Part shown: positions 26,612 to 63,786 of the stretch, one piece after another
Layout: every line of letters starts with the position of its first letter
How positions within the stretch are numbered: position 1 is the first letter of the stretch
From: Polynucleobacter sp. JS-Safj-400b-B2
GTDB taxonomy: Bacteria; Pseudomonadota; Gammaproteobacteria; Burkholderiales; Burkholderiaceae
Direction: 5' to 3'
Assembly (NCBI RefSeq): GCF_018881975.1
Contig: NZ_JACVPJ010000004.1
Coordinates: 202,290-266,289, forward strand
DNA: 64,000 bases
Program-made: the position numbers and the translations under genes
Notes under the pieces: generated by a model
Databases searched by the model: none
What the model was told of the DNA's origin: nothing
What the model saw: only the letters and a program-made list of their open reading frames with translations

Positions 26612-26680
26612 AATAGAATCAGATTAAGCTACCGAAATGCAGAAGCAAGTTTGAAAAATCACGAATACGAAGAGATCTCG

Positions 26681-28498: not shown

Positions 28499-28803
28499 GA
28501 TGGCGAGCCAATAACTACAATTGATGAAATATCAGGGTGTTTTGTATAGCGGTTGATCTGGCGAAGGGCTTGAGCTAGGGATCCTTGGATTTTGACCTCA
28601 AGCGCAATGCCGCCATCAATAATGAAATCCGGCCTATCCTTGGCGGTCAATGCTTGTTCGCGCGCATAGGAAATTTTGCGCTGTTGTAGTAATTGCTCAA
28701 TTCCATTCTGAAGGTCAAGCTCAGATGCAAACCGGAATCTCACTCCTTCAAAAACCTGTGCAAGAGAAGAGGGAGTTATATTGTTTTGCGCAAATAGTGA
28801 CAT
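28423..28803 (-). CDS. Small PD-(D/E)xK-like protein (126 aa) overlapping the 5' end of the SNF2 gene
   Basis: DRPDFIIDGGIALEVK fits a D-x(n)-E-x-K restriction-endonuclease-fold motif. It overlaps the helicase ORF by 76 nt in another frame. Confidence 0.4.
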   Translation of the reverse strand: MSLFAQNNITPSSLAQVFEGVRFRFASELDLQNGIEQLLQQRKISYAREQALTAKDRPDFIIDGGIALEVKIQGSLAQALRQINRYTKHPDISSIVVIGSPSWVGQIPLTVGSKPVTSIRITESLL

Positions 28804-28833
28804 TAGTTAAGTTTGATGTTCAAAATGTTGAAA

Positions 28834-29805: not shown

Positions 29806-29898
29806 TTAAATTACTATGCGTTGAATAATTTTCATTTTGATTGATGACACTAATAAAACATTTATGCATTCATCTACTTGGATACAGAAGTCAACCGC

Positions 29899-30498
29899 CT
29901 AAATATCACCACCCTTTGCCTTGCTGCCAAGGTAGCCGCTATGGTGACGCAGGGCGTAATCATTGGCTCCATACCCCGACATTTGCACCACTAAAACAGC
30001 CAATACATCACCAATGACAGTCATGGCGGTAGTCGAAGTGGTTGGCGTAAGCCCAAGCGGGCAGGCCTCCACTGGATCGCCAGTCCATAGTACGAAATCG
30101 GACTTATTGGCCAATGGCGAGTTTTGCTTGCCCGTAATAGCGATAATTTTGAGGGAGGGAATGAGGCGTTTTGCAAGGGTCTCTAGCTCCAAGACTTCTC
30201 GCGTCTGGCCGGAGTTTGATATGAGCATCAATACATCGTTTTGATGAAGAAGCCCTAAATCACCATGTTGTGCCTCTAGTGGGTGCAAAAACGCGCTTGG
30301 CAAACCAACAGAGCAAAAAGTAACAGCCATCTTCTTGCCGACCTCGCCAGCTTTCCCCACACCGCTGATGACAAGTTTTCCACTATTTGCCTTAGCTTTT
30401 AAAAAGAGTTTGGTACATTGCTCAAAAGGATTTTCCTTTGGAATGAAGGCAATTGCCCTAGCCTCAGCGGCGAGTACATCTTGGATTATTTTTATCAA
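29899..30498 (-). CDS. SIS (sugar isomerase) domain protein, KpsF/GutQ N-terminal-domain-like
   Basis: VISGVGKAGEVGKKMAVTF...HPLEAQHGDLG matches the SIS phosphosugar-binding fold. The protein is 199 aa with no CBS domains. Confidence 0.7.
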   Translation of the reverse strand: MIKIIQDVLAAEARAIAFIPKENPFEQCTKLFLKAKANSGKLVISGVGKAGEVGKKMAVTFCSVGLPSAFLHPLEAQHGDLGLLHQNDVLMLISNSGQTREVLELETLAKRLIPSLKIIAITGKQNSPLANKSDFVLWTGDPVEACPLGLTPTTSTTAMTVIGDVLAVLVVQMSGYGANDYALRHHSGYLGSKAKGGDI

Positions 30499-30600
30499 AA
30501 TTTAGTCCGTTTATTGTGGATGCGACTTGGATGCAATGCAGTCAGCCAATCACAAAACTCTGTTTATGAGTTAATTGCTATTTTGCACGATATGGGTAAA

Positions 30601-30879
30601 TCAATCATGAAACTCGGATACCCATTTTTTCTTGCCAGCATCAGTAAGGCGCCATTCTGACCGATTGCCGGCGGGCTCAAGCAAACCAAGTCGCTTTAAA
30701 TCTTGCTGGTACCATCGGATTTTTCGATTGAGGATATTGTGCTTTTGCCTGCACTTACCAACGGGCTGTACTGAATCGCCAGAATTTGGCGCAACTTTGT
30801 TATAAAGGGATTTATTACTCAGCGTTCCGGTGCCGGCGTAGGCTTGGGCGATATCGAATAGGTCTATTTGTTTTGGCAT
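30601..30879 (-). CDS. Small basic protein (92 aa), possibly winged-helix
   Basis: RWYQQDLKRLGLLE...LTDAGKKKW wing-like segment. Confidence 0.3.
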   Translation of the reverse strand: MPKQIDLFDIAQAYAGTGTLSNKSLYNKVAPNSGDSVQPVGKCRQKHNILNRKIRWYQQDLKRLGLLEPAGNRSEWRLTDAGKKKWVSEFHD

Positions 30880-30961
30880 GTACTATTTGACCGTTTGTAA
30901 TTTGAAAAGCAAACGTGAAATACCGCCACAATTTAGATGTGGCGGTATTTAAAACTACTAA

Positions 30962-33040: not shown

Positions 33041-33202
33041 AAATTCCTTTGTAATGTTTATAGGGATTGAGTAGAGTTAAATCTAGCGATCAATATTCGC
33101 ACTGAACTTATGCAAGTCAAATCGCAAGAAGTATCAATATTTGTCGAGAATTTAAAATAATTAAAGCCGCACAAGGCGGCTTTAATTAACTCAAAATGGA
33201 TG

Positions 33203-33847
33203 TCAGAACTTGTAACCCAGCCCCATCATTAAGTTGTAGTTTTGGGATTGAACTTGATAGACACCACCATCGCTATTGGCAAAATTAGACTTGTTGTTAG
33301 CAATGTAATTTGCCTCAACATAACCGTAGATATTGTCGGTAATGTACTGCTTATCGCCAATGCCGAGAGCCAAACCATTAATTGAATGATAGTCGCCATT
33401 GATGCCAAATTGGGTATTCTCGTAACCAACTTTTGCATACAGGAGTGATGTTGAGCTAAGGGCGTAGGCTGGAACCAAGGAGAGGTTGATGGGATTGCGC
33501 AATGCTACGTTACCGGTGGAGCATTTGGCAGGGCCTGTGCCGCTAAGCGTGTAATTGCCAGCACCAAGCCTATTAAACCCATAGTCCGCACTAACTCCAA
33601 GAAGGTAACGACTGTCGAGTGAAGTCATATAGCCGATACCAAAACTTGTTGGCACCTGGACTTCCGACGAATTGCTTGCCTGATAATTTTTACCGCCCAT
33701 TAAAACATTATTGCTTTTGAAGTTTGAATCTTGAACGCCGACGCCAATTTGGGCGTCAAACCCTTCGAATCGATGTGAAACTTGAGCCATGGCTCCGGTA
33801 GATAAAACGGTTGCAGCAATTGCCGCGACAAGAACAGTACTTCGCAT
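33203..33847 (-). CDS. Outer-membrane beta-barrel protein (OmpW/OmpA-like small porin)
   Basis: Signal peptide with AMAQ cleavage, alternating amphipathic strands and a C-terminal GLGYKF aromatic terminus. Confidence 0.55.
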   Translation of the reverse strand: MRSTVLVAAIAATVLSTGAMAQVSHRFEGFDAQIGVGVQDSNFKSNNVLMGGKNYQASNSSEVQVPTSFGIGYMTSLDSRYLLGVSADYGFNRLGAGNYTLSGTGPAKCSTGNVALRNPINLSLVPAYALSSTSLLYAKVGYENTQFGINGDYHSINGLALGIGDKQYITDNIYGYVEANYIANNKSNFANSDGGVYQVQSQNYNLMMGLGYKF

Positions 33848-33918
33848 ATAAATTCCTAATAAGATATACAGGGTTTAAGAGGTTGAGATGGGCGCGTGGT
33901 TGGCGCGCTCCTTACGAA

Positions 33919-34164
33919 TTAGTTGGCAACAACTGCTTTTTTGGCGGCTTTATGGTGCAATTTAGATGCTGTTTTCTTTTGGAGCTTTTCCGCTGCAGCG
34001 GCTTTTGGGGCTTCCGGCTTAATTTGGTTGGCCTTGACTTCGACCTCTACTGCAGCCTGTTCCTTTGCCGCATCTTCGATGCTTTGCGGTGTAACCTGGC
34101 TTGTTAAGGCAAAAGCGCTGAGGGTGAGGGTGCTTAATAGTGATGCAGCTAGTAATTTTTTCAT
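33919..34164 (-). CDS. Small secreted Ala/Lys-rich protein
   Basis: Signal peptide MKKLLAASLLSTLTLSAFA. Confidence 0.4.
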   Translation of the reverse strand: MKKLLAASLLSTLTLSAFALTSQVTPQSIEDAAKEQAAVEVEVKANQIKPEAPKAAAAEKLQKKTASKLHHKAAKKAVVAN

Positions 34165-34716
34165 CTTTGAATCCTTGAGAAGAAAGTGAAAGTCAATATT
34201 GACTTATGGTTAGCTTATGAAGTTATTGCGAAAAGAAACCATTGAATAATCAAAAAATTATTTCCGAATTAAAGAAACTCATTGATATCCTCGATTAATA
34301 TCGATCTTCTGGGTGGGTCCTTTCGATTTTTGCATGCCCAGCACGAACAAATCGCCGGAGTTTGGGAAACCATACCTAGAAGTCGCTTGGTTAGAGATGC
34401 TCTTCCAGCCCAATATTTGCACCTCAACTTTTTAATTCTGGCGAGTTGACTGCGACGAGTTTTTCTTAACGGAGTTTCGATTTTTCCTAATGCATCCATA
34501 CACACCTCTTCGGGATTGAATTGATAGGCACAACAAATAACATCCCAAAAGGATGAAAAATAGGATGTTGATTCTGTGCGCCATTTTTCAAAGATAGAGC
34601 CAATTAAATAGTTAAAAAATTGAATTGCATACTATTTTTTGCGTATTTGTAAACGCACAGAATTTTGCGGAGTTAAATTTAGGGTAGCCAATATCGGCCT
34701 TTATGGAGAATTAAAA

Positions 34717-34956
34717 ATGAAGAAATCGCTATTAACTTTTGCCTTGTTAGCTGCAGCTGGCGCAGCCTTGGCTCAGGTCACTCCGCCCCAACAAGATGGT
34801 CATGGTGAGCCGCCAAAACACGGTAATTTTGCAGAACATAAGCAGAAAGCTATCGCCGAATTGCAGTCACACTTGAACTGCGTGCAAGCATCACAAAATC
34901 TGGAGCAGTTAAAGGAATGCCGTCATAAACCACGGGGAATGGGTTCTGATCGTTAA
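34717..34956 (+). CDS. Small secreted protein
   Basis: Start chosen at MKKSLLTFALLAAAGAALAQ, a signal peptide. Confidence 0.4.
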   Translation: MKKSLLTFALLAAAGAALAQVTPPQQDGHGEPPKHGNFAEHKQKAIAELQSHLNCVQASQNLEQLKECRHKPRGMGSDR

Positions 34957-35125
34957 AAAAACAATGACCACCGCAGCACTTAGTTAAGACTTCAGCGCTA
35001 CTTAAATATCCAGCGCTGAAGTTTATCCACAGCTTTATCAAGCCTAAACCAAATAAAAATATAAAGAATGGCCCCAGCCATTATTATCCACGTTACGGTG
35101 AAGTTGATCCAGTAGTCAGTAAAGC

Positions 35126-35401
35126 TCAATTGATGTACTGCCCAATTTTGGAATTTTGCTTGCTTCGTGTTTGATAGCGTTTTTCATAGTCCTCGGCACA
35201 CTCAACAGAGCAAAACCGACTCACCCCCTTAAATACTGGATCGGTGATTTCATCCGGACAATTTAAGCAATGAGTAAATGTCGCCTGACCTGCGGCTTCT
35301 TTTGCCTTGCGTTGGACCTCAACAAGCTGCCTGCGAGCGGCAACCTGGGCATCAATTGTGCCCTGGGCCGTATCGTTTGCCGCATCAATATCATCTGCCA
35401 T
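35126..35401 (-). CDS. TraR/DksA-family C4 zinc-finger protein
   Basis: CLNCPDEI...CSVEC four-Cys finger at the C-terminus of a roughly 90 aa helical protein. Confidence 0.6.
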   Translation of the reverse strand: MADDIDAANDTAQGTIDAQVAARRQLVEVQRKAKEAAGQATFTHCLNCPDEITDPVFKGVSRFCSVECAEDYEKRYQTRSKQNSKIGQYIN

Positions 35402-35527
35402 TTTTACCCCAATCATTTATAAGGGATTAATTTGAGCACTGCAAAAGAGGCTTGCAAGTTCAAATAATTCATTTTTATTGAGGGCATTCATTTCTCAACC
35501 CACTGTGGAAAAACAAATCATTGGGGG

Positions 35528-36517
35528 ATGATCAATCACGAAACAATCTTATCGACGCTTTACATTGCACTAAACCCCATCAAAGAATATTTGGAGGGTG
35601 ATGGCATCAATGAAATCATGATTAATCCAGGGGGCGATGTCTGGATTGAGCGAAGGGGAATGATTGAGCATATTGGCGTTTTACTCAACGAGAATCAAAT
35701 AAAATTCGCCATTTATTCGGTAGCCAAACTCACCGGTAAGGCGGCAAGCCCAGGCGATGAAAATGCGCTAGTCAACGCAGCTTTTGAAGATTTTCGTTTT
35801 GCAGGAGTGCTGCATCCCATTTCACCTGATGGAAGCACGATTTGCATTCGAAAACATCAGGATAAAAGTCAGAGGCAGACTTTTGAAGATATGATTGACT
35901 GCGCCATGATTACCCAATCTCAAGGCGATTTTATATTGGATATGTTTGTTAAAAAGCATCAAAATATCATCATCGCAGGTATTACTGGCTCGGGCAAAAC
36001 AACCCTTTTAAATGCAATTGCCGGAAAAATACCAAACCATGAACGGGTGGTTACGATTGAAGATACAAGAGAACTCCATATATCTGTGGCGAATAAAGTA
36101 TCACTGTTATCAAATGAGCTTAACAATATTCATGCGGTAGATTTGGTTAAAGAGGCTTTGCGCCTGCGCCCGGACCGGATATTGCTAGGGGAAACACGTG
36201 GGTCAGAAACATTCGACTTAATAAGGGCCTTTAATTCGGGCCACGCCGGCATATCCACTGTACATGCTAATTCAGCAGTGCTGGCCTTAGATGCGATTGA
36301 GATGCTTTATCAAATGAGCCTACCAAAAGGAGCGGGCATTAGTTCGGCAGTGGTAAGACAGTACATTGCAAAATCAGTCAACATGACTATCTATGCAAAT
36401 CGACGATATATCCCGCAGCCAGACGGCACTATTCGCGCCGTTCGTAAAGTTGAGGAAATTTGTGTAATCAAGGGGCTTGATCGCGATGGAAATTACGAGG
36501 TTGAATACATCAAATAA
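35528..36517 (+). CDS. trbB: VirB11/TrbB-family type IV secretion ATPase
   Basis: Walker A GITGSGKTT, TIEDTRE (the Asp box), Walker B RILLGETRG and the His box HAGISTVHANS. Confidence 0.8.
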   Translation: MINHETILSTLYIALNPIKEYLEGDGINEIMINPGGDVWIERRGMIEHIGVLLNENQIKFAIYSVAKLTGKAASPGDENALVNAAFEDFRFAGVLHPISPDGSTICIRKHQDKSQRQTFEDMIDCAMITQSQGDFILDMFVKKHQNIIIAGITGSGKTTLLNAIAGKIPNHERVVTIEDTRELHISVANKVSLLSNELNNIHAVDLVKEALRLRPDRILLGETRGSETFDLIRAFNSGHAGISTVHANSAVLALDAIEMLYQMSLPKGAGISSAVVRQYIAKSVNMTIYANRRYIPQPDGTIRAVRKVEEICVIKGLDRDGNYEVEYIK

Positions 36518-36646
36518 TTTTTAATTTATCAACGACCATGTAAGCACTAGTGGTCTGTGGTCGTTGCCATAAGCTGTTGATTTAAAACAAATCTCATTTT
36601 TTACAATACGACCATCGAGGGTATTTTTTTTGAAATGAAATATATA

Positions 36647-36672
36647 AACCGGGACGAATCCCGGCTTTTATG
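36647..36672. terminator. Bidirectional hairpin terminator (ccggga-cgaat-cccgg) between convergent genes
   Basis: GC stem followed by CTTTTA on the plus strand and by a T-rich tract on the minus strand. Confidence 0.5.
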
Positions 36673-36688
36673 GTGTCAATTAAATTTA

Positions 36689-37057
36689 CTATTGGACAAT
36701 CCAACCCGTTGGGCAAGACTGTGCGACTGGGTAGAAAGCATTTGAAGGAGGGCAGAAATAAGTTAAAGGCCGTACATTTGGGTTTGGCTGCGTAACAAAT
36801 ACTTGCGGTTGCTGTTGAATGTAAATGGCTTGTGGTTGAACGTATGCGGACGGATAGTAAGGTCCATAACTATAGCCATAAGATCCATACCCATATCCGT
36901 AAGGAGCGTATGGGCGGTAATAGGAGTTTGCTGCAATAACGGTGCCGACCATCGCCCCACCAAGCAGGGCCGCACCCCAATTTCCGCCTCCATGAGCAAA
37001 AGATGGCGATGATAATAGTCCAGTTGTTGCCAATAATGCGATTAGAATTTTTTTCAT
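36689..37057 (-). CDS. Secreted Gly/Tyr-rich protein
   Basis: Signal peptide MKKILIALLATTGLLSSPSFA, then GYGYGSYGYSYGPYY repeats. Confidence 0.45.
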   Translation of the reverse strand: MKKILIALLATTGLLSSPSFAHGGGNWGAALLGGAMVGTVIAANSYYRPYAPYGYGYGSYGYSYGPYYPSAYVQPQAIYIQQQPQVFVTQPNPNVRPLTYFCPPSNAFYPVAQSCPTGWIVQ

Positions 37058-37130
37058 TTTTCCCCAAATCAGAGTCGTTGTTGGTACCTTAACAGTATTG
37101 CCGGTGATTTTGTTGACACAAGTTAACCAT

Positions 37131-38201
37131 TTAATTAGGCGCCTCGTCCCAAGTGCGCCCATCTAGGATCCGGCCAGCCTTTTTCTTGCCGACTCTACGC
37201 ATATGCACATCGCCACGCAAAAAACGGCCATCGCATTCGCGGTCAAACCGAACATGCTCGACAATTCCACAGCGCATATCGCCACCTAAATCGCCACCGG
37301 CACGCAGTTGATCCGGGTAGTATTCTCCCCATTGTTTAAATAAGAAAGGCACATCATGTCCAATGCATTGATCACGTAAATTTTGGGCCCATGCGGGATG
37401 CATAGGCCTTGCTCCAGGCCCTGATTCTCCGCCGACAATGACCCAATCGATACCGCAGTCCCAACCGGTCCATGAGGCTTCAATCCCGCAATGTGGGCAT
37501 AAAGGGATAACTTCTCCGTTGGCAGCCAAAAATACCTCAGTAGAATCTTTATCTACATAAGGTGTATCTGGGCACACATCCATGCAGGTAATGCCGGTAG
37601 GATCGAGCCAGCGCGCAATATCGATCCTTCCTAATAGCGGCTCAATGCTCAAAAAGCGCTTTGCAGCCGGCACCTTTAATAGTTTTGGAATATCGCGATC
37701 GGCTTCCTCTTGGTTGCAGATCGTTGCCCCAATCCATACATTAGGCCAAGGCCATTGCGCGAGGGGTGAATGATTGTGTTGGCCGGTGCTACATAGGCTG
37801 TCGGGCTCCAATTCCTCAGTAGCCCGCGCAATCATAGGCTGTGCATTTCCGATGCGCTTAGTTAAAAGTAGCCAGTCTAAATTCGGTGTTTGGCGAATGA
37901 GGGCAAATAAATCCGTGCGCCAGTGGCGTGGCACTGCATTATCAAATACATCGGCCAGCGAAGCGCAAAAGACCTTGTAGCGCACACCTTTTTCACCGGC
38001 TTCTTTATTCCATTTGAGCGGCTGCTTCCAGTTGGCCTCAGTTGTTCGGCGACGCTCGGCGTTGGGGCCCCACGCAACAGAGCCACTACGCTTTGCCCAA
38101 CTCTCTGCATAACAATGATCGCAAGCGGGCGACACTTTGGCGCAACCCGTCCAGGGATTAAAGGTGTGATCACACCATTCAATAGTAGTATCTTTTGCCA
38201 T
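37131..38201 (-). CDS. Phage Gp37/Gp68-family protein
   Basis: N-terminal IEWCDHTFNPWTGC...CDHCYA Cys/His cluster and a 356 aa size. Family call from memory of the IEW(T/C)...NP..GC signature. Confidence 0.55.
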   Translation of the reverse strand: MAKDTTIEWCDHTFNPWTGCAKVSPACDHCYAESWAKRSGSVAWGPNAERRRTTEANWKQPLKWNKEAGEKGVRYKVFCASLADVFDNAVPRHWRTDLFALIRQTPNLDWLLLTKRIGNAQPMIARATEELEPDSLCSTGQHNHSPLAQWPWPNVWIGATICNQEEADRDIPKLLKVPAAKRFLSIEPLLGRIDIARWLDPTGITCMDVCPDTPYVDKDSTEVFLAANGEVIPLCPHCGIEASWTGWDCGIDWVIVGGESGPGARPMHPAWAQNLRDQCIGHDVPFLFKQWGEYYPDQLRAGGDLGGDMRCGIVEHVRFDRECDGRFLRGDVHMRRVGKKKAGRILDGRTWDEAPN

Positions 38202-38202
38202 T

Positions 38203-38925
38203 TTATTTCCGTGAATTTTGAAAATTTACGGCGCCTGTCTCGCCTTGAGTCGCCTTGCCATTAATAGGCCTAAACTCAATAACCCAGACCCAAGGGTTTG
38301 AGTCCCAGTTTCTATAAATAGAGCTCCAAAGATCACGGAATGTGTCTTTTCCATTCCCAAAAAAGCCATCGTCATTATGAGCATAGCGAGTTGCGCTAAA
38401 CACGCTTACAGCTTTTACGCCCTCAGCCATTGCATCTGCCTCGCTAATATCTTGAAGTCGCTCAATGCGTACATTGGTGATCTCTAAAGTGATGCGACTA
38501 GCAGATCTGGGCATATGGATAGATGGGTGCCATGCTGATCTTCGCTCACCGCCACCGTCATCATCCCCAGCCCATTCGTGATCGCCATCGGCGGCATAAA
38601 TCACATGACCTGTGTAGTAGCCACGCCCATGTTTAAGTTCGTGGACGTGGGTAGCTGGCCTATCAGGAGTCCACTCAATCATGTCGCCGTCTGCGTTGAT
38701 TGCATAGCTTATAACACCCCATGTCTCCCGCACCCACAAGCGATCCCCCACTTGACCATAAGGGCAGGCAAGAATTGCGTCAGGATCTTCAACGTGCCAG
38801 TTTTTATCTTTGCATTGTGCTCGACCAGATGCGTTAAGTTTTACAATACGCCTGGTTTGTGTCTTAGTGCCGTCAAGAATGGCTCTCACCATGTCGCCAT
38901 TGAATAGGATAGGACGCTCGATCAT
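38203..38925 (-). CDS. ASCH/PUA-like domain protein
   Basis: An N-terminal ILFNGDMVRAILDGTKTQTRR motif of the kind commonly seen in ASCH-domain proteins. Confidence 0.45.
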   Translation of the reverse strand: MIERPILFNGDMVRAILDGTKTQTRRIVKLNASGRAQCKDKNWHVEDPDAILACPYGQVGDRLWVRETWGVISYAINADGDMIEWTPDRPATHVHELKHGRGYYTGHVIYAADGDHEWAGDDDGGGERRSAWHPSIHMPRSASRITLEITNVRIERLQDISEADAMAEGVKAVSVFSATRYAHNDDGFFGNGKDTFRDLWSSIYRNWDSNPWVWVIEFRPINGKATQGETGAVNFQNSRK

Positions 38926-39164
38926 GCTTGCTCACCTTTAGCTTTCTTGTCGCCATCACTCACATCTAGAAAGATGGCTTTGTTTTCGCCACATACCGGG
39001 CAGCAAGCGCTCTTAAGCAATGTGGCACATTTTTCCATCGGCATTGGCAGATACGCCGCAACCCAATGGTGATCGCAAGATTTGCAAAGTACCTTTAACG
39101 GTGTTTTAGAGGGTGGTTTTTCCATTTGAAGGCTCTCCCCCGTTAATATTTTTTTAGCGCTCAC
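38922..39164 (-). CDS. Small zinc-ribbon protein
   Basis: CKSCDHH...CCPVCG Cys pairs. Overlaps both neighbours by 4 nt. Confidence 0.4.
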   Translation of the reverse strand: MSAKKILTGESLQMEKPPSKTPLKVLCKSCDHHWVAAYLPMPMEKCATLLKSACCPVCGENKAIFLDVSDGDKKAKGEQA

Positions 39165-41047
39165 GCCGCCATCTCCATAAATTGTTTATCAACATAGTTT
39201 TTCGCAACCAACGCCTGCGCGATAGGTGGGCAAACAGAATTGCCGACCATCTTCACTTGATTGGTTTTCGATAAGGGCTTGCCTTTGAACTCAAATTCAT
39301 GGATATAGCTCTCTGGAAAGCCTTGAGCTAAATAAAGCTCATGTGGTTGGAGCATGCGCATACCAATATCGACAATGACATAAGGCTCGCCATTCAGATG
39401 TACGATAACTAGACCAAACCGGTCCTTGGTTGGTATTGTGTGCAAGGGCTCATCGAGCGGTACACCATCTTTTTCATTGCCGTAATACTTGACCAGCAAT
39501 GCTCGAACCTCGCCAGCATGAGTGCCCCCAGCGGTAACGGTGTGCAATGGTGAATTTACAGGGCTGCCAACGTTATCGCCACGCAATTTGACCATGTGGC
39601 TAGTAACTAGACCTTGTGTAATTGCGGTGCCTGGTCGTTTTGGTTGGCCACCCGCAATAATGGTGTGCATCGGGGTATCAAGCTCAAAGCCAGTGCTACC
39701 AGTATTGAACTTAGTCATATGGGCAGTAACGACCGAATGATGATCAACTGTGGTGACAGTGCCGGTTGGCTTATCTAATGGCTGGCCAAGAACGCCCGTG
39801 TAATGTTTGGCCAAGAACGCCGATACAAGTGCGCGCCTATTCTCGGTGGTTTGGGTTTTTAAGGGCTCATCAAACGAAGATCCGCGCGTATCACCGGACT
39901 CAGTTTTATGGCCGTAATAGCTTGAAATATGCGCTGCCACCAGATTTTCTAACTCTTCTTCGTCTGCACCTTCATATGGAAGCTCAATTTCATCTAGTAC
40001 ATCAGAACAAGATGATTCACCACATTTTGGACATGTTGGATTTCTTTCGTAATCATCCACACCATATCGAGCGCCACAATTGTCGCAACCAAAGCGCCAA
40101 CGTCTAAGTGCGCCACTATCAGCTTTAGCTAGGGCTGGTACCACAATAGCCCTGTGATTTTCCGTGGGAACGGTACCCAGTGGTTTTAATGTTGACGATG
40201 GTTTTCCTGAATACACGGGGCCGCCTTGCCCGACAATAAATGGCTCCCCAGTCTCAATCACATAGCGCACTACACCTTTGGCTATGCGTTTAAGTGTTGA
40301 TTCAGCAAGAGGTTTCTTGCGATCAAAAATTGAAGGGCAGGGAATGGACCAGTCAATACACTCAGCTGCAGTTCGCCATTCCTTAAGCCTCTTAGGGTCA
40401 AAGCCTTTTGCCTTTGGGTTTCCATGAGTAATTTGTGGCCACTCAATTGGCATGCCATCGCAGCGAGCCACCAAAAAGAGGCGCTTGCGAATAGTTGGAG
40501 CTCCGTAGTCACTAGCGACCAAGGTTTTCCATTCAACTTGGTAGCCTAGTCTTTTTAATGCTTCAATCCATAGGTCAAAGGTTTTGCCTTTGCGTTTTTT
40601 GCATGGCATGAAGCCGCCAGTTTTTTTATCCTTAACAACAGGTCCCCAAAACTGCATTTCTTCAACGTTTTCCATCATGATTACGCGAGGGCGTACTTTG
40701 GAGGCCCAGCGAACCACCACCCAAGCAAGAGATCTCAACTGCTTGGAAACAGGGGTTCCCCCACGTGCTTTAGAAAAATGAGTGCATGACGGGCTGGCCC
40801 AGAGCAAACCAACAGGCCGACCACCGCTAGCCTCAACCGGATCAACCTCAAAAATGTCTGAGCAGTAATGCTTAGTTTGAGGGTGATTGGCTGTATGCAT
40901 GGCAATAGCTGCTTCATCATGGTTGATCGCGATATCGACTGAGCGACCGATAGCCGCTTCTATACCGGTAGATGCACCACCACCGCCTGCAAATAAATCT
41001 ACGACGAGCTCGTTATGGATGGGGAGATTAAATTGGGGTGTAAGCAT
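39161..41047 (-). CDS. DNA (cytosine-5)-methyltransferase with an enlarged variable region containing about six reiterated TRD-like modules and an internal zinc ribbon
   Basis: Motif I DLFAGGGG, motif IV ASPSCTHFS (PC), motif VI ENV (MMENVEEM). Repeated modules PLxT(V/I)xxxxHxxLVxxxxxKxxG occur at least six times. The CDNCGARYG...CPKCG segment is a Zn ribbon. Confidence 0.8.
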   Translation of the reverse strand: MLTPQFNLPIHNELVVDLFAGGGGASTGIEAAIGRSVDIAINHDEAAIAMHTANHPQTKHYCSDIFEVDPVEASGGRPVGLLWASPSCTHFSKARGGTPVSKQLRSLAWVVVRWASKVRPRVIMMENVEEMQFWGPVVKDKKTGGFMPCKKRKGKTFDLWIEALKRLGYQVEWKTLVASDYGAPTIRKRLFLVARCDGMPIEWPQITHGNPKAKGFDPKRLKEWRTAAECIDWSIPCPSIFDRKKPLAESTLKRIAKGVVRYVIETGEPFIVGQGGPVYSGKPSSTLKPLGTVPTENHRAIVVPALAKADSGALRRWRFGCDNCGARYGVDDYERNPTCPKCGESSCSDVLDEIELPYEGADEEELENLVAAHISSYYGHKTESGDTRGSSFDEPLKTQTTENRRALVSAFLAKHYTGVLGQPLDKPTGTVTTVDHHSVVTAHMTKFNTGSTGFELDTPMHTIIAGGQPKRPGTAITQGLVTSHMVKLRGDNVGSPVNSPLHTVTAGGTHAGEVRALLVKYYGNEKDGVPLDEPLHTIPTKDRFGLVIVHLNGEPYVIVDIGMRMLQPHELYLAQGFPESYIHEFEFKGKPLSKTNQVKMVGNSVCPPIAQALVAKNYVDKQFMEMAA

Positions 41048-55488: not shown

Positions 55489-56595
55489 ATGCCTAAGACG
55501 CTAAAAACGGCTCAACACTTTCGCAATAGAAATAGAGGTATCACTTTAGTTGAGGTTATTGGCGGATTATTTATTCTAAGCATGGTTATGATCATGCTTA
55601 ACCAAATCACCACATCGATTCTGGATAACACCAAGGCAAATCTCACGGCAACCTACGAAACGACGGTTGCAAATGCTGCGCAAGCTTATATTAAAACCAA
55701 TTACAGCGCCGTCGCCTCGGTGGCAACCTCAACCACGCCGGCCTTAATTACTATCCAAAGTTTAATTAATACTGGGTTTTTACAGTCAGGTTTTTCATCT
55801 AAAAATCCCTACTCTCAGAGTACTTGCATTCTTGTTTTGCAGCCATCAAGCAATCAACTGCAAGGGATTGTGGTCTCAGAGTCAGGCACGGTAATTGATG
55901 ATGTGATGTTGGGCAGCATTAGCTCAACAATGGGGGCGGCTGGTGGAGGCATATACAGCTCAGCAACTGCAACAATAAAAGGTGCCGCCGGAAGCTGGTC
56001 AACACCAACTTCTGGCTTTAGCGTTCCCAATAGCGCCGGCACAAATTGTAATGGTATGGCCGGCAATGTTTCGCTAGCGGCCGGCCACCCCGTCTACGCG
56101 TTATGGTTTGCAAATGGGGATATTGCAAGCTCTTTTTTGTACAGAAATTCGGTTAGCGGAAATCCTAGCCTCAACACAATGAACACTCCATTGATCATGG
56201 CCTCAGTTCAAACTGCTGCATCAGCATGCACAACCACCGGATCAATAGCAGTTAACGCGCAGGGCTTGGTACTGAGCTGCCAAAGCGGCACATGGCAACT
56301 GCAAAGTAGCTCATATTGGCTTTCACCAGTAACTACCTACGCAAATTTACCGTCAACCGATCAAGCTGGGTCAGTACGCCTTACTGCAGACACCAATAGA
56401 GTTTTCGTGTGGAGTGGGGCATCTTGGCTTGCGCTTGGTGTTGACCAAAGTGGTAATTTTACGGACCCAGGCAAACTATCAACAGGCCAGGTTGCGCTAA
56501 CGGCAACTACAGCCACGAATGGAGCAAGCTGCGCGACTTACGGCACTGGTGTTGTGTCAAGAGATGCTTCGGGGAATATTTATGTGTGTAAGTAA
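55489..56595 (+). CDS. PilV-like minor prepilin/adhesin
   Basis: Prepilin leader ending RNRNRG, then ITLVEVIGGLFILSMVMIM. A 368 aa Ser/Thr/Ala-rich body. Confidence 0.6.
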   Translation: MPKTLKTAQHFRNRNRGITLVEVIGGLFILSMVMIMLNQITTSILDNTKANLTATYETTVANAAQAYIKTNYSAVASVATSTTPALITIQSLINTGFLQSGFSSKNPYSQSTCILVLQPSSNQLQGIVVSESGTVIDDVMLGSISSTMGAAGGGIYSSATATIKGAAGSWSTPTSGFSVPNSAGTNCNGMAGNVSLAAGHPVYALWFANGDIASSFLYRNSVSGNPSLNTMNTPLIMASVQTAASACTTTGSIAVNAQGLVLSCQSGTWQLQSSSYWLSPVTTYANLPSTDQAGSVRLTADTNRVFVWSGASWLALGVDQSGNFTDPGKLSTGQVALTATTATNGASCATYGTGVVSRDASGNIYVCK

Positions 56596-56693
56596 TCAAT
56601 TGGATTCGCTCACTTTTCTCTAATTACTTATTTCCCTGCCGCCTAAACATAACTCTTTAATGAATTGATTCAGTTTCATTAAAGGGTTATGCC

Positions 56694-57827
56694 ATGATGT
56701 CTATTGCTCGGGGTTTTCACAGCCTCATTTATGCCGTTGTTCTCTTCCTAGGTCTCAATATTTCGGGGGGTGACCTTGGCTCGGCATATGCTCAAACATG
56801 GCAAAACGTTCCTGCGCAGTCCGGCAGTGCTGGTACTTGGCAGGCGTTAAGCTGTAATACTACCTCCAATCTCACTTGGCAGCCACTAGGTTGCAACCCG
56901 GTTACTTATAGCTGTCCGACAGGTTATACGCTATCAGGACAAACTTGCTCAATCACCGTATTTAGCGCGGCAATCTCTGTTTATGGATGTTCTAGCGGGG
57001 TTTTAAGTGGGACGAGCTGTATTGCGAGCAGCACTGTCGCGGCGACTTTGGGCTATAGCTGCGGGTCTGGATACACCCTGTCCGGTAGCTCATGCACCAA
57101 ATCCACAACAACGGCAGCCACTGCTAATTATTATTGCCCAAGCGGCGGTAGTTTAGGGGGCACCACTTGTACTGTTAGCGGAAGTTATGGAGCGTCAATC
57201 GCTTCGTACTATTGCCCAAGCGGCGGTAGTTTGGGGGGCGCCTGGTGCAACACTAGCTGGAGTTATGGAGCTAGTGGTGCAGCGTCCGGCTGCAGTGCTG
57301 GACTATTTACGGGCGGAAGATGTCGCTTTGGCCCATCACCCCAATCCGCATACAACTCGCAATTTTGCCCAAATCAAACTGTCACCGGTGGACCGGGCGG
57401 ACTATATCCAACTTACTACTATTATTGCCCTACTTATATTACCTATAGCTATTCCTGCCCGTCGGGCGGTTCTTTAAGTGGCGCTACTTGTTATGTTTCA
57501 TCTGGCTATGGTGCGTCAATCGCTTCGTACTATTGCCCAAGCGGGGGCAGCTTGTCTGGATCGACTTGCTTTACCTCCTCATCCTATGGCGCTTCCGTTG
57601 GCTCGTATTCATGTGGCTCTGGCACTTTATCTGGCTCATCATGTATCACCACAACAACAGTGCCAGCAACCCCAATTTATTCATGCTTAAGCGGAGTTTT
57701 GTCGGGATCTACCTGTGCAGTCTCGACTACAACTGTCGCCGGCATTACAGGCTACTATTGCAACACTGGAGCGCTATCGGGGTCACAATGCTCCACAACG
57801 GTTACGATACCGGCTACGGCGAATTGA
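56694..57827 (+). CDS. Secreted Cys-rich tandem-repeat protein (about 13 copies of a 19-22 aa Y(S/Y)CxSGxLSGxxC module)
   Basis: Signal peptide MMSIARGFHSLIYAVVLFLGLNISGG...AYAQ. Near-identical roughly 60 nt DNA repeats around 57120-57300 and 57440-57590. The alternate-frame ORFs here are artefacts of those repeats. Confidence 0.55.
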   Translation: MMSIARGFHSLIYAVVLFLGLNISGGDLGSAYAQTWQNVPAQSGSAGTWQALSCNTTSNLTWQPLGCNPVTYSCPTGYTLSGQTCSITVFSAAISVYGCSSGVLSGTSCIASSTVAATLGYSCGSGYTLSGSSCTKSTTTAATANYYCPSGGSLGGTTCTVSGSYGASIASYYCPSGGSLGGAWCNTSWSYGASGAASGCSAGLFTGGRCRFGPSPQSAYNSQFCPNQTVTGGPGGLYPTYYYYCPTYITYSYSCPSGGSLSGATCYVSSGYGASIASYYCPSGGSLSGSTCFTSSSYGASVGSYSCGSGTLSGSSCITTTTVPATPIYSCLSGVLSGSTCAVSTTTVAGITGYYCNTGALSGSQCSTTVTIPATAN

Positions 57828-57909
57828 ATTTTCGCCGAAATGAATCCATCCGACTCATTCAGATAGAATTAGCAATTAATTAATCCACCAAGACTCGGGA
57901 GTCACTCTA

Positions 57910-58479: not shown

Positions 58480-58759
58480 CGGCGAATTCGAGTTTTGAAT
58501 TGAGCAAATTCCAGCTTTTAGCCAAATCGAGTGCGAACGTCTGGGTTTCGATCGGAATGATCTACCCGGAGCTAGATACAGAGGATTATCGGTACGAAAC
58601 AAAACTAGAGGCTTCAAGGGTAAAAGGGCGGATCAAGCAGTATCTCAAACACTACAAACCAAGAGACAAAGTTCCAATCAAAATCATTGAACTGATTTGA
58701 TTTTTGAGGGCACACTAATTTGGTTTGCTAGAATACCTACGTTGATAGTGCTCGCGTCT

Positions 58760-58950
58760 AATTTTCAATAGGCGCAGTTAAACGGGAAATTGGAGTCTGT
58801 AAAGGCTACCATGCTGTCCCCGCAACGGTAAGCAAACGCATAGAAGGTTATGTCGGCTCAATCGAAATACCACTGGCTTAGGCTGGGAAGGTCATTGAGT
58901 TCAGTTCGCTAGTCCGGATACCGGCTCTCAATATGTCAATTGGATGCGGG
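58760..58950 (+). ncRNA. Cobalamin (adenosylcobalamin/B12) riboswitch
   Basis: AACGGGAAATTGGAG...GCTGTCCCCGCAACGGTAAGC (the GGGAA...CCCGCAACGGTAA core) and the B12 box ACCACTGGCTTAGGCTGGGAAGGTC, about 90 nt upstream of a TonB-dependent receptor gene. Confidence 0.7.
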
Positions 58951-59025
58951 ATCGCCTTCGATTGGTTAAGTCCAGTGCCTACGTGGGAGCTAGGTCCGTG
59001 ACTATTGCTGTTTGACGGAACCACC

Positions 59026-61002
59026 ATGAATCAAATTCATAAAAAATCTTTGGCGAAATCCTTCGCCTTGCTATTGCCAATTCTTTTTTCGGCTCATACC
59101 TACTGCCAAGCATCAGATGTTAATCCACTGGTTGTTACTGCCACAGGCTATAAGCAGCCCCTTTCAGATGTTCTGCCTTCTGTAACAGTCGTTACTAGGG
59201 AGCAAATTGAAAAATCGCAAGCACCCTCAATTGCGGATCTGCTGCAAGGTGAGCCAGGGCTTGAGTTTCATAGAACTGGAGGACCCGGTCAAGTGACCAC
59301 CTTCAACCTTAGGGGTAACAACGGTACCAATTTAGTAATTTATGTTGATGGAGTGAGGTCGCAAGTCGATGGATTTGGAAATTTAACCGTCCTCAATATT
59401 CCGCCAAATACAGTTGAGCGCATAGAAATTCTTAGAGGTAATGCAGGGGCGCTTTATGGCGATGCAGCAATTGGCGGGGTAATTAATATTTTCACACGTC
59501 AAGGGGGCAATACCGACCCGAAAGCGTATGCATCAGTAAGCGTTGGTTCATACAACACCCAGGAGGCAATGGTTGGATATGGTGGCGCCATAAACGAAAC
59601 AAAATTTAATTTAACTTTCGATGAAATGACTAGCAAAGGAATCCCAACCCTAAATGCCGCTCAATATCCAAACGTCAATCCAAATACGGGCGCAATATCC
59701 TCGCAAACTATTAATGCATCTCTGAGCCAAAAAATTACAAAGGATTTTGAGTTGGGTGGTGGCGCAAGATATTTCACGTCCAACGCTAACTATGCGGACC
59801 CAAATGCCGGGCCAACAAGCGCTGGAGGCGATGGTGCTACATCTAGTAACACCTGGAATTTAAAAAACATCAGCACGGATATTGGTGGTTTTGCAAAATA
59901 CAACGTGAACGAAAATTGGACGACAAGATTCGATATTGCTCAATCGCAACTTCAAAATCAATATTATTCAAATGTAAACGCTGTGGAATTTGTAGCAAAT
60001 AATGGGTATAACCCAAATTACAGCACCCAAAATATTCAAACCTCTACAAAGTGGTTAAACAGTTATGAGCTTGATAAAGATAAAATAATCATTGCTGGGG
60101 TGGACTACACACAAGCAGGTTATGACGACGGACAGGGGAATAGCTCCCTATCCCAAAATGATCAAGGCTATTTTTTAGGCTATACCCAGCAGTACGATGC
60201 GCTCGATATCCAGATCAACGGACGTCATGATTATTCAACCGTTAAAGAGCAAAATACTGGATTCACCAATCAAACTTATAAGGTCAATACGGGTTTGTTT
60301 GGGCTGGGCTATCACATCACCGAAGAATTCAAATTGACAGGAACCATCTCTACTGCATTTCAAGCGCCAACAGCCGGCCAAATTTTTGGCTACTCATATG
60401 GCGGCGGCAGCACTTTTAACGCAGGATTGGTCCCGCAAACGTCCTATACAAACGAGCTTGGCGCCGTGTACCAAAAGTCAGAATTTCTTTCAAGACTTGT
60501 TTATTTCAATTCAAGAACCATGAATGCAATTCAAGGTCAACAGGTTCCCAATGGCTTTGAGTTTTTTAATATTTCTCAATTAAGAAATAACGGCTATGAG
60601 TTTAGTCAGCGGGCAAATGTTTACGGGGTTAAGGTAAATGCCGCATATACAAATCAAAACCCAGTCGATTTATCTACTGGACAAACGCCACCATTGATTG
60701 CAAGGCAATTTGGGTCGGTGGACCTGAACAAAGCAATCAATGAGAAATTTGATATCGGTACAAAAGTTTACTTCTCTGGCGCAAGGCAGTCTACTTTTTA
60801 TGCCCCGATGAATGGCCCAAGCACAGCCGTGACATTAAGCAATTATCAGGTGTGGAGTTTTTATGCTGGTATGAAAATCACTGATGAGCTAAGTGTGCGA
60901 GTGCGATTAAATAATGCTTTCAATGAACAATACCAATTGGTCTCTGGCTACAACACAATGGGGCGCAATGTGATGTTTACCATAGCTTATCAGCAAAAAT
61001 AA
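59026..61002 (+). CDS. btuB: TonB-dependent outer-membrane receptor, BtuB-like vitamin B12 transporter
   Basis: Signal peptide, a TonB box-like PLVVTATG, the plug motifs (RTGGPGQVTTFNLRG, IEILRGNAGALYGDAAIGGVINIF) and a long beta-barrel. Riboswitch-controlled. Confidence 0.8.
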   Translation: MNQIHKKSLAKSFALLLPILFSAHTYCQASDVNPLVVTATGYKQPLSDVLPSVTVVTREQIEKSQAPSIADLLQGEPGLEFHRTGGPGQVTTFNLRGNNGTNLVIYVDGVRSQVDGFGNLTVLNIPPNTVERIEILRGNAGALYGDAAIGGVINIFTRQGGNTDPKAYASVSVGSYNTQEAMVGYGGAINETKFNLTFDEMTSKGIPTLNAAQYPNVNPNTGAISSQTINASLSQKITKDFELGGGARYFTSNANYADPNAGPTSAGGDGATSSNTWNLKNISTDIGGFAKYNVNENWTTRFDIAQSQLQNQYYSNVNAVEFVANNGYNPNYSTQNIQTSTKWLNSYELDKDKIIIAGVDYTQAGYDDGQGNSSLSQNDQGYFLGYTQQYDALDIQINGRHDYSTVKEQNTGFTNQTYKVNTGLFGLGYHITEEFKLTGTISTAFQAPTAGQIFGYSYGGGSTFNAGLVPQTSYTNELGAVYQKSEFLSRLVYFNSRTMNAIQGQQVPNGFEFFNISQLRNNGYEFSQRANVYGVKVNAAYTNQNPVDLSTGQTPPLIARQFGSVDLNKAINEKFDIGTKVYFSGARQSTFYAPMNGPSTAVTLSNYQVWSFYAGMKITDELSVRVRLNNAFNEQYQLVSGYNTMGRNVMFTIAYQQK

Positions 61003-61259: not shown

Positions 61260-61760
61260 TTAGTCGTTAGGGTGAAAAATTCCTTTAAAAAACTTGATCA
61301 CAAAGTCATCCTCAATCATTTCAAAGCTATCGATTTTGCAATCGATATGATCAATGGTTGCATTGCCTTTATTAAAAACAAGGTAGCCAGTGTTTTGACC
61401 TGGCCACATCACAATGCTGCCATCTTTTCTCTTGAGTGGAGCGGTAATCGTGTCCGGCTCAGAGGGCCCATTTTGCAAAATAAATCTCTCGGCTTGATCG
61501 TAATTAACAATACATGTCGCAGTAACGTTAGCAGGTCGCTCCGGGTCCTTATTATCAATATCAAAAATGACCGATACCTTACCAGCCGTTGACATAACGT
61601 AATTGCCACCAGAGTAAATGTTAATAAATTCACTTGTAGGCATCGTTTTGGCAAGAGTTAGGGCTTTTCCGGAGATTAAGGATGACTCATCACTTGCCAT
61701 TGCAGCGAAGGATAGTGCGATGAGGAATGCGGCAATTGTCGGCAGGTAAGTTTTATTCAT
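61260..61760 (-). CDS. Secreted hypothetical protein (166 aa)
   Basis: Signal peptide MNKTYLPTIAAFLIALSFAAMA. Confidence 0.4.
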   Translation of the reverse strand: MNKTYLPTIAAFLIALSFAAMASDESSLISGKALTLAKTMPTSEFINIYSGGNYVMSTAGKVSVIFDIDNKDPERPANVTATCIVNYDQAERFILQNGPSEPDTITAPLKRKDGSIVMWPGQNTGYLVFNKGNATIDHIDCKIDSFEMIEDDFVIKFFKGIFHPND

Positions 61761-61927
61761 TAATAGGACCTTTCGTTTGTAATAACAATACTAAAGGCCA
61801 GATTTATGAATGCAAGTTTACACCTAAGGCACCATGCCTTAAAAGTTAAAAATTTACAGCGATTACATTTTCATCTAGGGATTTTTATTGCCCAAAATAG
61901 ATGAATCAACAACCAAACACAAATTTT

Positions 61928-62629
61928 ATGAAAAAAATTCTTCTTGCCGCTGCAATTACTGCCTTGATGAGTCACTCAGCCATAGCGCTGACCAATCAAG
62001 ATAACCTACTAAAAAAACTACAAGTGAAGTTTCCCGCAAATCATATTGATAAAGTTCTTGAAACCCCCATCCCCGGCATCTATGAAATTGATTCAGGACG
62101 TGAAGTTGCCTATACAACAAAAGATGGCAGGTTCATTTTCTTAGGATTGATTGATGCCAAAGAGGGGAAAGACCTTACTGCCATTAGGAGGGCTGAGCTA
62201 AGCAAGGTTGACTTTGGAGAATTGCCATTGGCAAATGCGATTAGAGATATTCGTGGTAACGGCAAAAGAACCCTTGCAATTTTTTCGGATCCAGACTGTC
62301 CTTATTGTCAAAAATTAGAATCTGAAATGATTGGATTAACGGATATCACCATCTACACGTTTCAGATGCCAATTGCTCAATTGCATCCCGGCGCCAAGCG
62401 TAAGGCTATCAGCATTTGGTGCGCTGACGATCAAGTGAATGCGTGGGGCGATGCCGTTGGTAAAGGCGCTAATGTTGTGGATAGGGAATGCCAAAACCCA
62501 ATTGATGAAAATCTTGCTCTGGCAGCAAAACTCTCAATTAATGGAACGCCAACACTCATTGCGCCTGATGGCAGAGTTTCATCTGGCGTAATGACGGCAA
62601 AACAGATCGAAGATTGGCTTGCAAAGTGA
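61928..62629 (+). CDS. dsbC: Thiol:disulfide interchange protein, DsbC/DsbG family
   Basis: Signal peptide MKKILLAAAITALMSHSAIA, an N-terminal dimerisation region and a thioredoxin fold with a CPYC active site. Confidence 0.75.
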   Translation: MKKILLAAAITALMSHSAIALTNQDNLLKKLQVKFPANHIDKVLETPIPGIYEIDSGREVAYTTKDGRFIFLGLIDAKEGKDLTAIRRAELSKVDFGELPLANAIRDIRGNGKRTLAIFSDPDCPYCQKLESEMIGLTDITIYTFQMPIAQLHPGAKRKAISIWCADDQVNAWGDAVGKGANVVDRECQNPIDENLALAAKLSINGTPTLIAPDGRVSSGVMTAKQIEDWLAK

Positions 62630-62916
62630 TCCCGTCCAACCCTCGAGGGCCTACTTTTCAAAAGTGGGTTTTGTTATAAATCAATAGCTTGAAGCAATAA
62701 CCCTCGACCACTAGCAGTTACATGGTCGGGGATAAATTGGGAATGTTACGCCTAGGTAATACACGGGCAATAGCCTTGCTACATTTAATTCGCCCTAGCC
62801 GGTACTGTAACCGTTGTGGAGCATTGCGGCCCCGATAGTAATCTAGTGTTGCAATAGTAGCTTGTAATGCAAGCGGCAGTTGTAGTTGAGGCTGCACAGG
62901 CGGATCAACAAAGGAT

Positions 62917-63786
62917 CTATGGTAGAGGCAGAAAGCCACCAACAAAATACCCAAATAAACACGTCAAAGAGCCCGCAATGCATATGGACGGCCCGAATGG
63001 AAGCGGAGTGTCTTTTGTTGCTCTAGAAGTTAAGATTGCCACCGCACTCCAAACTAAAGCAAATCCCGAGGCCACCGGGATTATTTGGAATAAGAGCGTG
63101 TGCACTCCAAACCACGCCCCAAGTGCAGCCATCAATTTAGCATCACCACCGCCAAGCCCAGTTTTATTAAGAAAGGCTTCGTAGTAAAAGTTAATTCCAA
63201 AAAACAAAACGTATCCCAAAGCGGCCCCCCATATAGACTCCTGTAGGCCGACAAATCCAGCCAATGGAAAAATTGAGTTCATGAGCAACCCAATCCATAA
63301 AAATGGAAGGGTTATTGCGTCCGGCAAAAGTAGATGATCAATATCAATCATGGTTAATGACACCATGATCCCAATGAAGATTATCGTTAAAAGCAGGTTT
63401 AATGAAAATCCGAATTGGTGAGCTGCAGCCACATACAAAATGCCGGTTGCCAACTCAACGAGGGGGTAGCGAATACTGATTGGCGCGTGACAATGACTAC
63501 ATTTTCCCTTTAGGAATAGATAGCTAATAACAGGGATATTTTCGTACCATGAAATTTGGTTCCCGCATTTTGGGCAGCTTGAGCGAGGTACCGCCAGATT
63601 ATATTGGGGTGATTTAGCCCGGGCATCCAGGTTCGAGGATATCTCATTTGCCCATTGCGCTTCTAACATAATGGGGAGCCTATAAATCACTACATTTAAG
63701 AAGCTACCAGCCAGCAGTCCAAATAAAAAAAGGCTTAATTGTAAAAATGGGGGGGAGTTTTGCAGCTGCAAGAAGAAAGAAGTCAT
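62917..63786 (-). CDS. pilD: Prepilin peptidase (A24 family, PilD/GspO)
   Basis: N-terminal CPKCG...CSHC zinc-binding tetracysteine, polytopic membrane topology and a GGGDAKL catalytic Asp motif. Confidence 0.8.
   Translation of the reverse strand: MTSFFLQLQNSPPFLQLSLFLFGLLAGSFLNVVIYRLPIMLEAQWANEISSNLDARAKSPQYNLAVPRSSCPKCGNQISWYENIPVISYLFLKGKCSHCHAPISIRYPLVELATGILYVAAAHQFGFSLNLLLTIIFIGIMVSLTMIDIDHLLLPDAITLPFLWIGLLMNSIFPLAGFVGLQESIWGAALGYVLFFGINFYYEAFLNKTGLGGGDAKLMAALGAWFGVHTLLFQIIPVASGFALVWSAVAILTSRATKDTPLPFGPSICIAGSLTCLFGYFVGGFLPLP

Follow-up and report, generated by a model that had tools for sequence, protein, structure and literature searches.

Recipient specificity in conjugation is set by TraN tips (PMC9246713, PMC13104618) or, for conjugative type IVb pili, by PilV adhesins (PMC9045228, PMC5297154). 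In the R64/IncI shufflon, the recombinase Rci together with sfx repeats swaps the 3' ends of pilV. CofJ of enterotoxigenic Escherichia coli (ETEC; pilus CFA/III) and TcpF of Vibrio cholerae (TCP, the toxin-coregulated pilus) are soluble proteins that are secreted by type IVb pili and dock on a minor pilin via an N-terminal segment in which an aromatic residue is essential, SxGGAFT being one motif of the CofJ family (PMC6048534, PMC9565799). In Myxococcus TraA, cysteine-rich (Cys-rich) tandem repeats have been proposed to form a rigid stalk, from which a variable cell-recognition domain is presented (PMC3325183). Here we describe a Cys-rich hairpin-repeat protein encoded in a 64,000-nt stretch of Polynucleobacter sp. 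JS-Safj-400b-B2 (contig NZ_JACVPJ010000004.1, positions 202,290 to 266,289; hereafter the window). A first-pass annotation had singled it out as a secreted, modular, Cys-rich protein downstream of a PilV-like adhesin; our analysis bears this out and places the gene immediately behind pilV, within the type IVb pilus cluster of a conjugative system. We put the chances at about even that this protein is a free-standing, TraN-type stalk-and-tip factor, an accessory of cell contact (adhesion or stabilisation of mating pairs) for a conjugative type IVb pilus/VirB-type system, a function inferred from the comparisons that follow.

The gene (56694-57827, plus strand) encodes 377 amino acids plus a stop. 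The start and length given in the first-pass annotation were confirmed, whereas the end it gave, 57883, is that of an overlapping, out-of-frame open reading frame (ORF; 57488-57883). By inspection, residues 1-33 (56694-56792, +) read as a Sec-type signal peptide with predicted cleavage after AYA (MMSIARGFHSLIYAVVLFLGLNISGGDLGSAYA followed by QTW, that is, …GSAYA before the cut and QTW after it), and AlphaFold2 (AF2) predicts a helix at residues 5-23. No prepilin leader (PF07963, N_methyl) was found in the protein, whereas PilS and PilV match in the same scan. Ser accounts for 19% of the residues, Gly for 15%, Thr for 13%, Tyr for 8% and Cys for 7%. The 26 cysteines fall into 13 consecutive pairs, 11 of which form canonical C-x2-G-x2-L-x-G-x2-C modules with a period of 24-26 residues, while two (C54-C67 and C225-C245) are atypical. 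The repeat is far above chance, with homologue E-values down to 1e-70.

Four parts can be told apart along the mature protein. The N-terminal segment (residues 34-67; 56793-56894, +) holds C54-C67 and three 13-residue 'TWQ' repeats (TWQNV…, TWQAL… and TWQPL…; DNA repeat D3, spacing 39 nt), and is a candidate docking end. This TWQ-bearing mature N-terminus, QTWQNVPAQSGSAGTW, with abundant small residues and with aromatics, is the best-conserved stretch of the small family: residues 33-74 are 93% identical to those of homologue P0001 (3 substitutions in 42), against about 51-64% for whole proteins. There follow Arm 1, with six hairpin modules (56904-57323, +; first Cys at 74, 99, 123, 148, 174 and 200), and a central non-repeat insert (residues 211-251; 57324-57446, +) with the atypical C225-C245 pair. 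Within the family this insert is hypervariable, and it is a candidate distal tip. Arm 2 (57447-57824, +) has five modules (first Cys at 255, 281, 307, 331 and 356) and a conserved C-terminal tail, TVTIPATAN. The AF2 model of a five-module segment, residues 68-190, has a predicted local distance difference test (pLDDT) score of 85 and consists of separate hairpins, in each of which a short strand leads through a turn into a long one, with one Cys pair per module; the earlier description as 'Cys-knot-like' does not agree with this model. The protein matched nothing in Pfam (E ≤ 0.01 and also E ≤ 10) or NCBIfam, and a search of solved structures returned no match by sequence and no solved fold.

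Among described proteins, one of the closest likenesses is to the long, repeat-bearing TraN of sphingomonad and betaproteobacterial plasmids, which has the same C-x2-G-x2-L-x-G-x2-C module with significant sequence similarity and the same arm-insert-arm layout of conserved arms around a hypervariable centre. In the TraN of Sphingopyxis sp. DBS4 plasmid pDB-1 (WP_306999122.1, 1058 amino acids), nine canonical modules at residues 200-436, with a degenerate tenth at about 277, are followed by a non-repeat insert, at least seven modules (533-694, several further beyond) and then the TraN C-domain. Closely related TraN N-halves are 85-87% identical in the arms and 19% in the insert; the corresponding mean identities in the Cys-rich family (alignment A1) are 56-59% for the arms and 20% for the centre. 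Module counts go up in both arms together, from 3+3 in P0004 through about 4-5+4 in the relative L033 to 6+5 here. This parallel growth would fit two arms that pair into a stalk with the insert at its far end, the arrangement that we infer from the layout.

There are also differences from TraN. The Cys-rich protein stands free at 377 amino acids where repeat-bearing TraN has about 1000; it has neither the PF06986 (F_T4SS_TraN) C-terminal domain, in Pfam searches to E ≤ 10, nor the TraN N-terminal base domain, and its gene lies in a VirB-type plus type IVb pilus system, unlike TraN, which belongs to F-type systems. No ORF scanned in the window matched TraU or TrbC_Ftype, and virB2/3/4/6/11-type genes and pilL-V are present instead. 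Membership of TraN proper was rejected on the lack of a PF06986 domain and of an F-type tra cluster.

The wider distribution of the module leads repeatedly to TraN. In an exhaustive profile search, matches with E ≤ 1e-3 came from 692 clusters (50% identity) and those with E ≤ 1e-30 from 75; only some four or five clusters shared the N-terminal domain of the Cys-rich family as well. The N-domain of homologues P0026 and P0020 is common to 32 of the 120 top homologues. The genes of these two lie directly upstream of a PF06986 TraN gene and overlap its start, in the order TraU-TrbC-X-TraN at the P0026 locus and without TraU or TrbC nearby at the P0020 locus. Homologue P0015 occupies the same slot before TraN in a cluster with a DsbC gene, and four genome loci read TraU-TrbC-repeat-TraN. 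In P0023 and P0046, PF06986 is carried by the homologue itself. The tblastn search of plasmids gave 14 matches. Thirteen were on plasmids of sphingomonads and the other on one of Herbaspirillum; an annotated TraN covers three of them, and at most of the others no gene is listed. DsbC genes are found in module-bearing TraN-type clusters, and the transfer cluster studied here likewise holds a DsbC-type gene.

TraN was also seen in split form. At three F-type clusters (L034 10001-13374, L036 10001-13179 and L041 10001-12939), two overlapping or adjacent ORFs encode, first, the N-domain with hairpin repeats and, second, the PF06986 C-domain, which make up a single protein at the P0023, P0046 and pDB-1 loci.

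A second setting of the module is the type IV pilin. In at least five proteins (P0041, P0086, P0093, P0101 and P0105), the same hairpin module is fused C-terminal to a type IV pilin N-terminus, and Pfam confirms N_methyl in P0041 and P0093. These fusions recall the modular type IV pilins that carry an adhesive module, such as Streptococcus sanguinis PilB (PMC8179133). The Cys-rich protein differs from modular pilins in having a Sec signal rather than a prepilin leader, and therefore could not be polymerised into a pilus but would have to bind to one; membership of the type IV pilins was rejected, there being no prepilin leader or PF07963 match. Because the module is used in the central region of TraN and has been grafted onto type IV pilins, the 'adhesin module' of the first-pass annotation is a reasonable reading.

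The gene itself is embedded in transfer functions. It starts 98 nt after the gene for a PilV-like minor pilin of 368 amino acids, presumably the pilus tip adhesin (55489-56595, +; Shufflon_N at E 2.8e-27, N_methyl; plasmid homologues annotated PilV). Upstream of the Cys-rich gene, the order is pilL (TcpQ domain), pilN (TIGR02520, 368 bits), pilO, pilP, pilQ (ATPase), pilR (platform), pilS (major pilin), pilM and pilV, preceded by virB2-, virB3-, virB4- and virB6-type genes and, further upstream, an ATPase gene of virB11 size. Downstream come the gene for a 189-residue membrane protein, a cobalamin riboswitch with the gene for a BtuB-like TonB-dependent receptor, and then orf166 and the genes for a DsbC homologue and a prepilin peptidase, of which orf166 and the last are on the minus strand. 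A metagenome contig that is 99.2% identical (L037) runs on from here into virB8, so the pilus block with the Cys-rich gene lies between virB6 and virB8 and hence inside the transfer gene cluster. The type IVb pilus cluster as a whole (pilL-pilV plus prepilin peptidase; window 41949-63786 together with L037) thus sits inside a VirB-type system and not as a separate operon. The DsbC-like disulfide isomerase (61901-62629, +; DsbC_N, Thioredoxin_2 and NF008129 DsbC) could help in the folding of a protein that would have 13 disulfides.

A Sec signal without an anchor, a place inside the pilus block beside the prepilin peptidase gene and conserved termini would also suit a factor, periplasmic or associated with the outer membrane, that serves the structure or assembly of the pilus or its secretin and has no role in contact with other cells. 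Such a scaffold seems to us quite improbable: a hypervariable centre between conserved arms is typical of an exposed recognition surface and not of an internal scaffold, pilins and exposed regions of TraN carry homologous modules, and related type IVb pilus clusters assemble without the Cys-rich protein.

The position after pilV invites comparison with the shufflon, as the first-pass annotation had proposed. The equivalence of position holds up: the Cys-rich gene, like the R64/IncI shufflon, directly follows pilV in a conjugative type IVb pilus cluster, and on the closest plasmid relative, Methylovorus pMsip01, this same position is occupied by a shufflon-like inverted pilV fragment. The mechanism does not carry over. 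Unlike the shufflon, the region has no recombinase between 54 and 64 kb of the window, the only tyrosine recombinase of the window lying about 50 kb off, and it has neither a set of short inverted sfx-like repeats nor alternative pilV ends. A scan for inverted repeats found only chance-sized pairs and one 124-nt pair, which is formed by 57706-57829, at the end of the Cys-rich gene, and 62783-62906, with an 85% match and 4953 nt between the arms. The distal arm (62783-62906, minus strand) is what remains of the 3' end of a second Cys-rich gene and forms an inverted copy, with 85% match, of the last 41 codons of the first. It has no start codon, lies 10 nt after the stop of the prepilin peptidase gene (62917-63786, minus strand; A24_N_bact, Peptidase_A24), and reads SACAASTTTAACITSYYCNTRLLSGPQCSTTVTVPARAN and then a stop. 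There is no sign of active inversion between the 124-nt arms, whose orientation is the same in the window and in L037. Shufflon-like inversion was accordingly rejected: the repeat is the remnant of a second copy, no recombinase is nearby and the orientation is shared. The arms enclose the genes for the membrane protein, the riboswitch-receptor unit, orf166 and dsbC.

A different source of variation had been proposed on the basis of the repeats within the gene, described as near-identical DNA units of about 60 nt whose perfect copies would allow expansion and contraction. On this explanation the protein is a contingency-type adhesin in which module number changes rapidly by recombination between near-identical repeats, replacing a shufflon as the means of varying recipient range. 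Some exact repetition is indeed present: a 32-nt direct repeat, the longest (57192-57223 and 57513-57544, +), is in frame with copies 321 nt apart, BLAST extending the similarity around it to 48 nt at 92% identity, and a 23-nt direct repeat (57132-57154 and 57210-57232, +) has copies 78 nt, or one module, apart. Four modules look recently duplicated or converted, and module number varies among distant homologues, the full-length homologues P0001-P0003 having 18-20 Cys against 26 here. Other features speak against this explanation. Tandem Repeats Finder reported no array (0 rows even at score 30), and copies of the best 65-nt unit (57129-57193) are 80%, 65% and 62% identical, so that 'near-identical' overstates the likeness of units of about 60 nt. 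Resemblance at the DNA level is limited to four of the 11 modules (first Cys at 148, 174, 255 and 281), five of the six pairs among them being 53-69% identical over 78 nt and the sixth, 174/255, 49%; the remaining module pairs listed are about 45-53% identical, and module DNA identity is mostly 45-55%. The same codon is used at only 36% of the residues that are identical between modules and this, with the low DNA identity, indicates that most modules are old. An in-frame deletion between the 32-nt repeats would, moreover, take out the entire central insert.

Close relatives give the same answer. Over about 11 kb, 85 positions distinguish the window from L037 (0.8% of sites), with a single, synonymous difference in the Cys-rich gene, and an identical 377-residue protein is encoded by these two sampled haplotypes and by a third contig, L001. 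Copy number, whose comparison the first-pass annotation suggested, thus shows no sign of instability in the two haplotypes sampled, a sample of low power, and expansion and contraction through perfect repeats finds no footing in repeats that are short and form no tandem array. Rapid repeat variation was rejected on the Tandem Repeats Finder result, the module DNA identities and the identical alleles in two haplotypes, and we hold the contingency explanation to be very improbable. Read from the family sequences, variation instead takes the form of replacement of the insert together with slow gain and loss of modules over long evolutionary time. Thirty-nine of the 85 differences between the window and L037 fall in the 3' half of pilV (56013-56595), where 30 codons differ synonymously and six non-synonymously; this looks like a recombined allele tract rather than diversifying selection.

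Beyond these contigs the family is small. The closest named homologues come from Polynucleobacter, as do P0004 and P0008, in keeping with a probable freshwater host among the Burkholderiales, and Polynucleobacter sp. JS-Safj-400b-B2 has two paralogues. A metagenome scan with the N-terminal domain gave only two loci, and a profile search with a 53-residue N-terminal alignment gave no match, the profile being too short for the size of the database. A genome scan with the family alignment, with patterns that were generic repeat motifs, returned distant repeat proteins and no close family, and blastn of the region against plasmids gave no match. At L033, the order is a Cys-rich 3' end, a prepilin peptidase gene, a full Cys-rich gene, an orf166 homologue and a TonB-dependent receptor gene, the prepilin peptidase thus having Cys-rich gene sequence on both sides.

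The genes that follow in the window raise the question of whether the Cys-rich gene is itself a passenger, encoding an extracellular or periplasmic protein unrelated to DNA transfer (for a surface matrix, related to toxins or linked to vitamin B12 uptake) in a spot prone to rearrangement. Its next neighbours are cargo-like (the membrane protein, the cobalamin riboswitch with its BtuB-like receptor, and orf166), L033 pairs it with orf166 and a TonB-dependent receptor and L032 with an orf166-like gene, the inverted remnant copy shows that the region has been rearranged, the module also occurs in RHS toxins, and related pilus plasmids do without the gene. The receptor gene (59005-61002), however, follows directly on a cobalamin riboswitch of its own (RF00174; 58729-58943; 71.5 bits, E 1.9e-16), and since it is under this control it forms a separate B12-uptake unit that begins after the Cys-rich gene; a link between the Cys-rich gene and the receptor was set aside for this reason. 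The nearest conserved neighbours are pilus genes, namely pilV and, in L033 and beside the remnant, that for prepilin peptidase, and TraN is the best-documented home of the module in Proteobacteria. We consider a passenger role possible though unlikely.

Some features of these neighbours merit mention in their own right. The B12-uptake unit of riboswitch and receptor is embedded in a pilus/transfer gene block of a mobile element. Its riboswitch leader is 86% identical in DNA between L033 (4653-5166) and the window (58495-59010), with receptor proteins behind it that are only 28% identical, and the receptor body behind the conserved leader appears to have been swapped or to diverge fast. The orf166 product (61260-61760, minus strand) is a small signal-peptide protein with no family match; it recurs at L033 (1844-2386) and L032 (1-70), so that orf166, or an orf166-like gene in L032, accompanies the Cys-rich gene in all three loci with visible neighbours. 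Only six homologues of it were found in a collection of 5.8 billion proteins.

Several observations weigh against a TraN-type contact factor. The hairpin module is found in RHS toxins and in Gram-positive proteins and is therefore a general extracellular building block that is not specific to conjugation. The Cys-rich protein has no TraN base domain, pilin signal, recognisable outer-membrane anchor or sorting tag, and the AF2 model of its full length (six sequences) is poor, with a pLDDT of 37.5; the proposed two-arm stalk is read from the layout. No pilV precedes the genes of two close homologues on short contigs: at L030 the protein upstream is unrelated, and at L031 the upstream 212 nt are non-coding and a TraI_2 relaxase gene lies downstream. 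The closest plasmid-borne pilus clusters, of Hydrogenophaga and Methylovorus, have no such gene after pilV, so that it is not a general pilus component. Among the RHS proteins with modules are giants of 2055 and more than 2204 amino acids (L004 4455-15509 and L007 4-15163) from one Comamonadaceae and one Rhodoferax genome, whose genes adjoin secretin, ATPase and platform genes of the type II secretion system/type IV pilus type.

The comparison with CofJ and TcpF bears on how a contact factor of the TraN type might be held at the pilus. Like them, the Cys-rich protein has a Sec signal and is encoded inside a type IVb pilus operon beside genes for a minor pilin and a prepilin peptidase, and its conserved mature N-terminal segment has small and aromatic residues. 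Unlike them, it resembles no solved structure in sequence or fold, both CofJ and TcpF being solved, and the minor pilin here is of the PilV type (Shufflon_N) and not of the CofB/TcpB type with its lectin-like trimer domain. Membership of the CofJ/TcpF family was rejected for want of sequence or fold homology. To our knowledge, no secreted partner of a conjugative type IVb pilus has been described. The Cys-rich protein could by analogy be the first, exported via PilN and hooked by its aromatic N-terminus onto the PilV tip as CofJ and TcpF are on theirs, where the TraN-type stalk would present a swappable, recipient-selecting insert. We offer this version tentatively and regard it as doubtful; if true, a single device would combine the TraN tip with the PilV adhesin, the two known strategies by which conjugation recognises recipients.

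The resemblance to Myxococcus TraA is one of general design, a Cys-rich repeat stalk (TIGR04201) with a variable PA14 recognition domain. The Cys-rich protein belongs to another repeat family (no NCBIfam match), lacks PA14 and a MYXO-CTERM tag, and would serve another biological process.

If the protein is a TraN-type contact factor, it would be exported by the Sec pathway to the periplasm, where its 13 disulfides would form, perhaps with the help of the element's own DsbC. Its way to the surface may then lead through PilN, the secretin of the pilus. Both conserved ends, N- and C-terminal, would provide docking, and the variable central insert would contact the recipient. A stem-loop lies immediately before the gene (inverted repeat I5; 56648-56691, +), with 17-nt arms and a 10-nt loop, which ends 2 nt before the ATG and covers the AAAGGG Shine-Dalgarno sequence. 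Its minimum free energy is -21.9 kcal/mol (z -3.2), and it is kept at the P0001 locus (L032); there a U.G pair has become U-A by a G-to-A change, which makes for better pairing, while the flanks diverge. The stem-loop may be a translational control element.

The G+C content is about 44%. The remainder of the window has the look of a large conjugative element, with genes for a ParM-like protein, a tyrosine recombinase, methylases, an SNF2 helicase and a ligase. The block at 22915-41047, upstream of the transfer genes, encodes DUF1173, a non-specific endonuclease, a NERD nuclease, an SNF2 helicase, N6/N4 and C5 DNA methylases, SPFH proteins and DUF5131, and is cargo-like or defence-like in content.

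The determinants of recipient choice known so far are TraN tips in F-type systems and PilV tip adhesins in type IVb pili. A free-standing, TraN-type stalk-and-tip protein beside PilV in a VirB-type element suggests that contact modules move between transfer systems. Judged by profile matches, the hairpin module is widespread but undescribed, with about 700 clusters at 50% identity that include TraN, pilins and RHS toxins, and defining it would improve the annotation of many conjugation, pilus and toxin proteins. The hypervariable insert, for its part, is a place in which to seek the host-range determinants of environmental plasmids.

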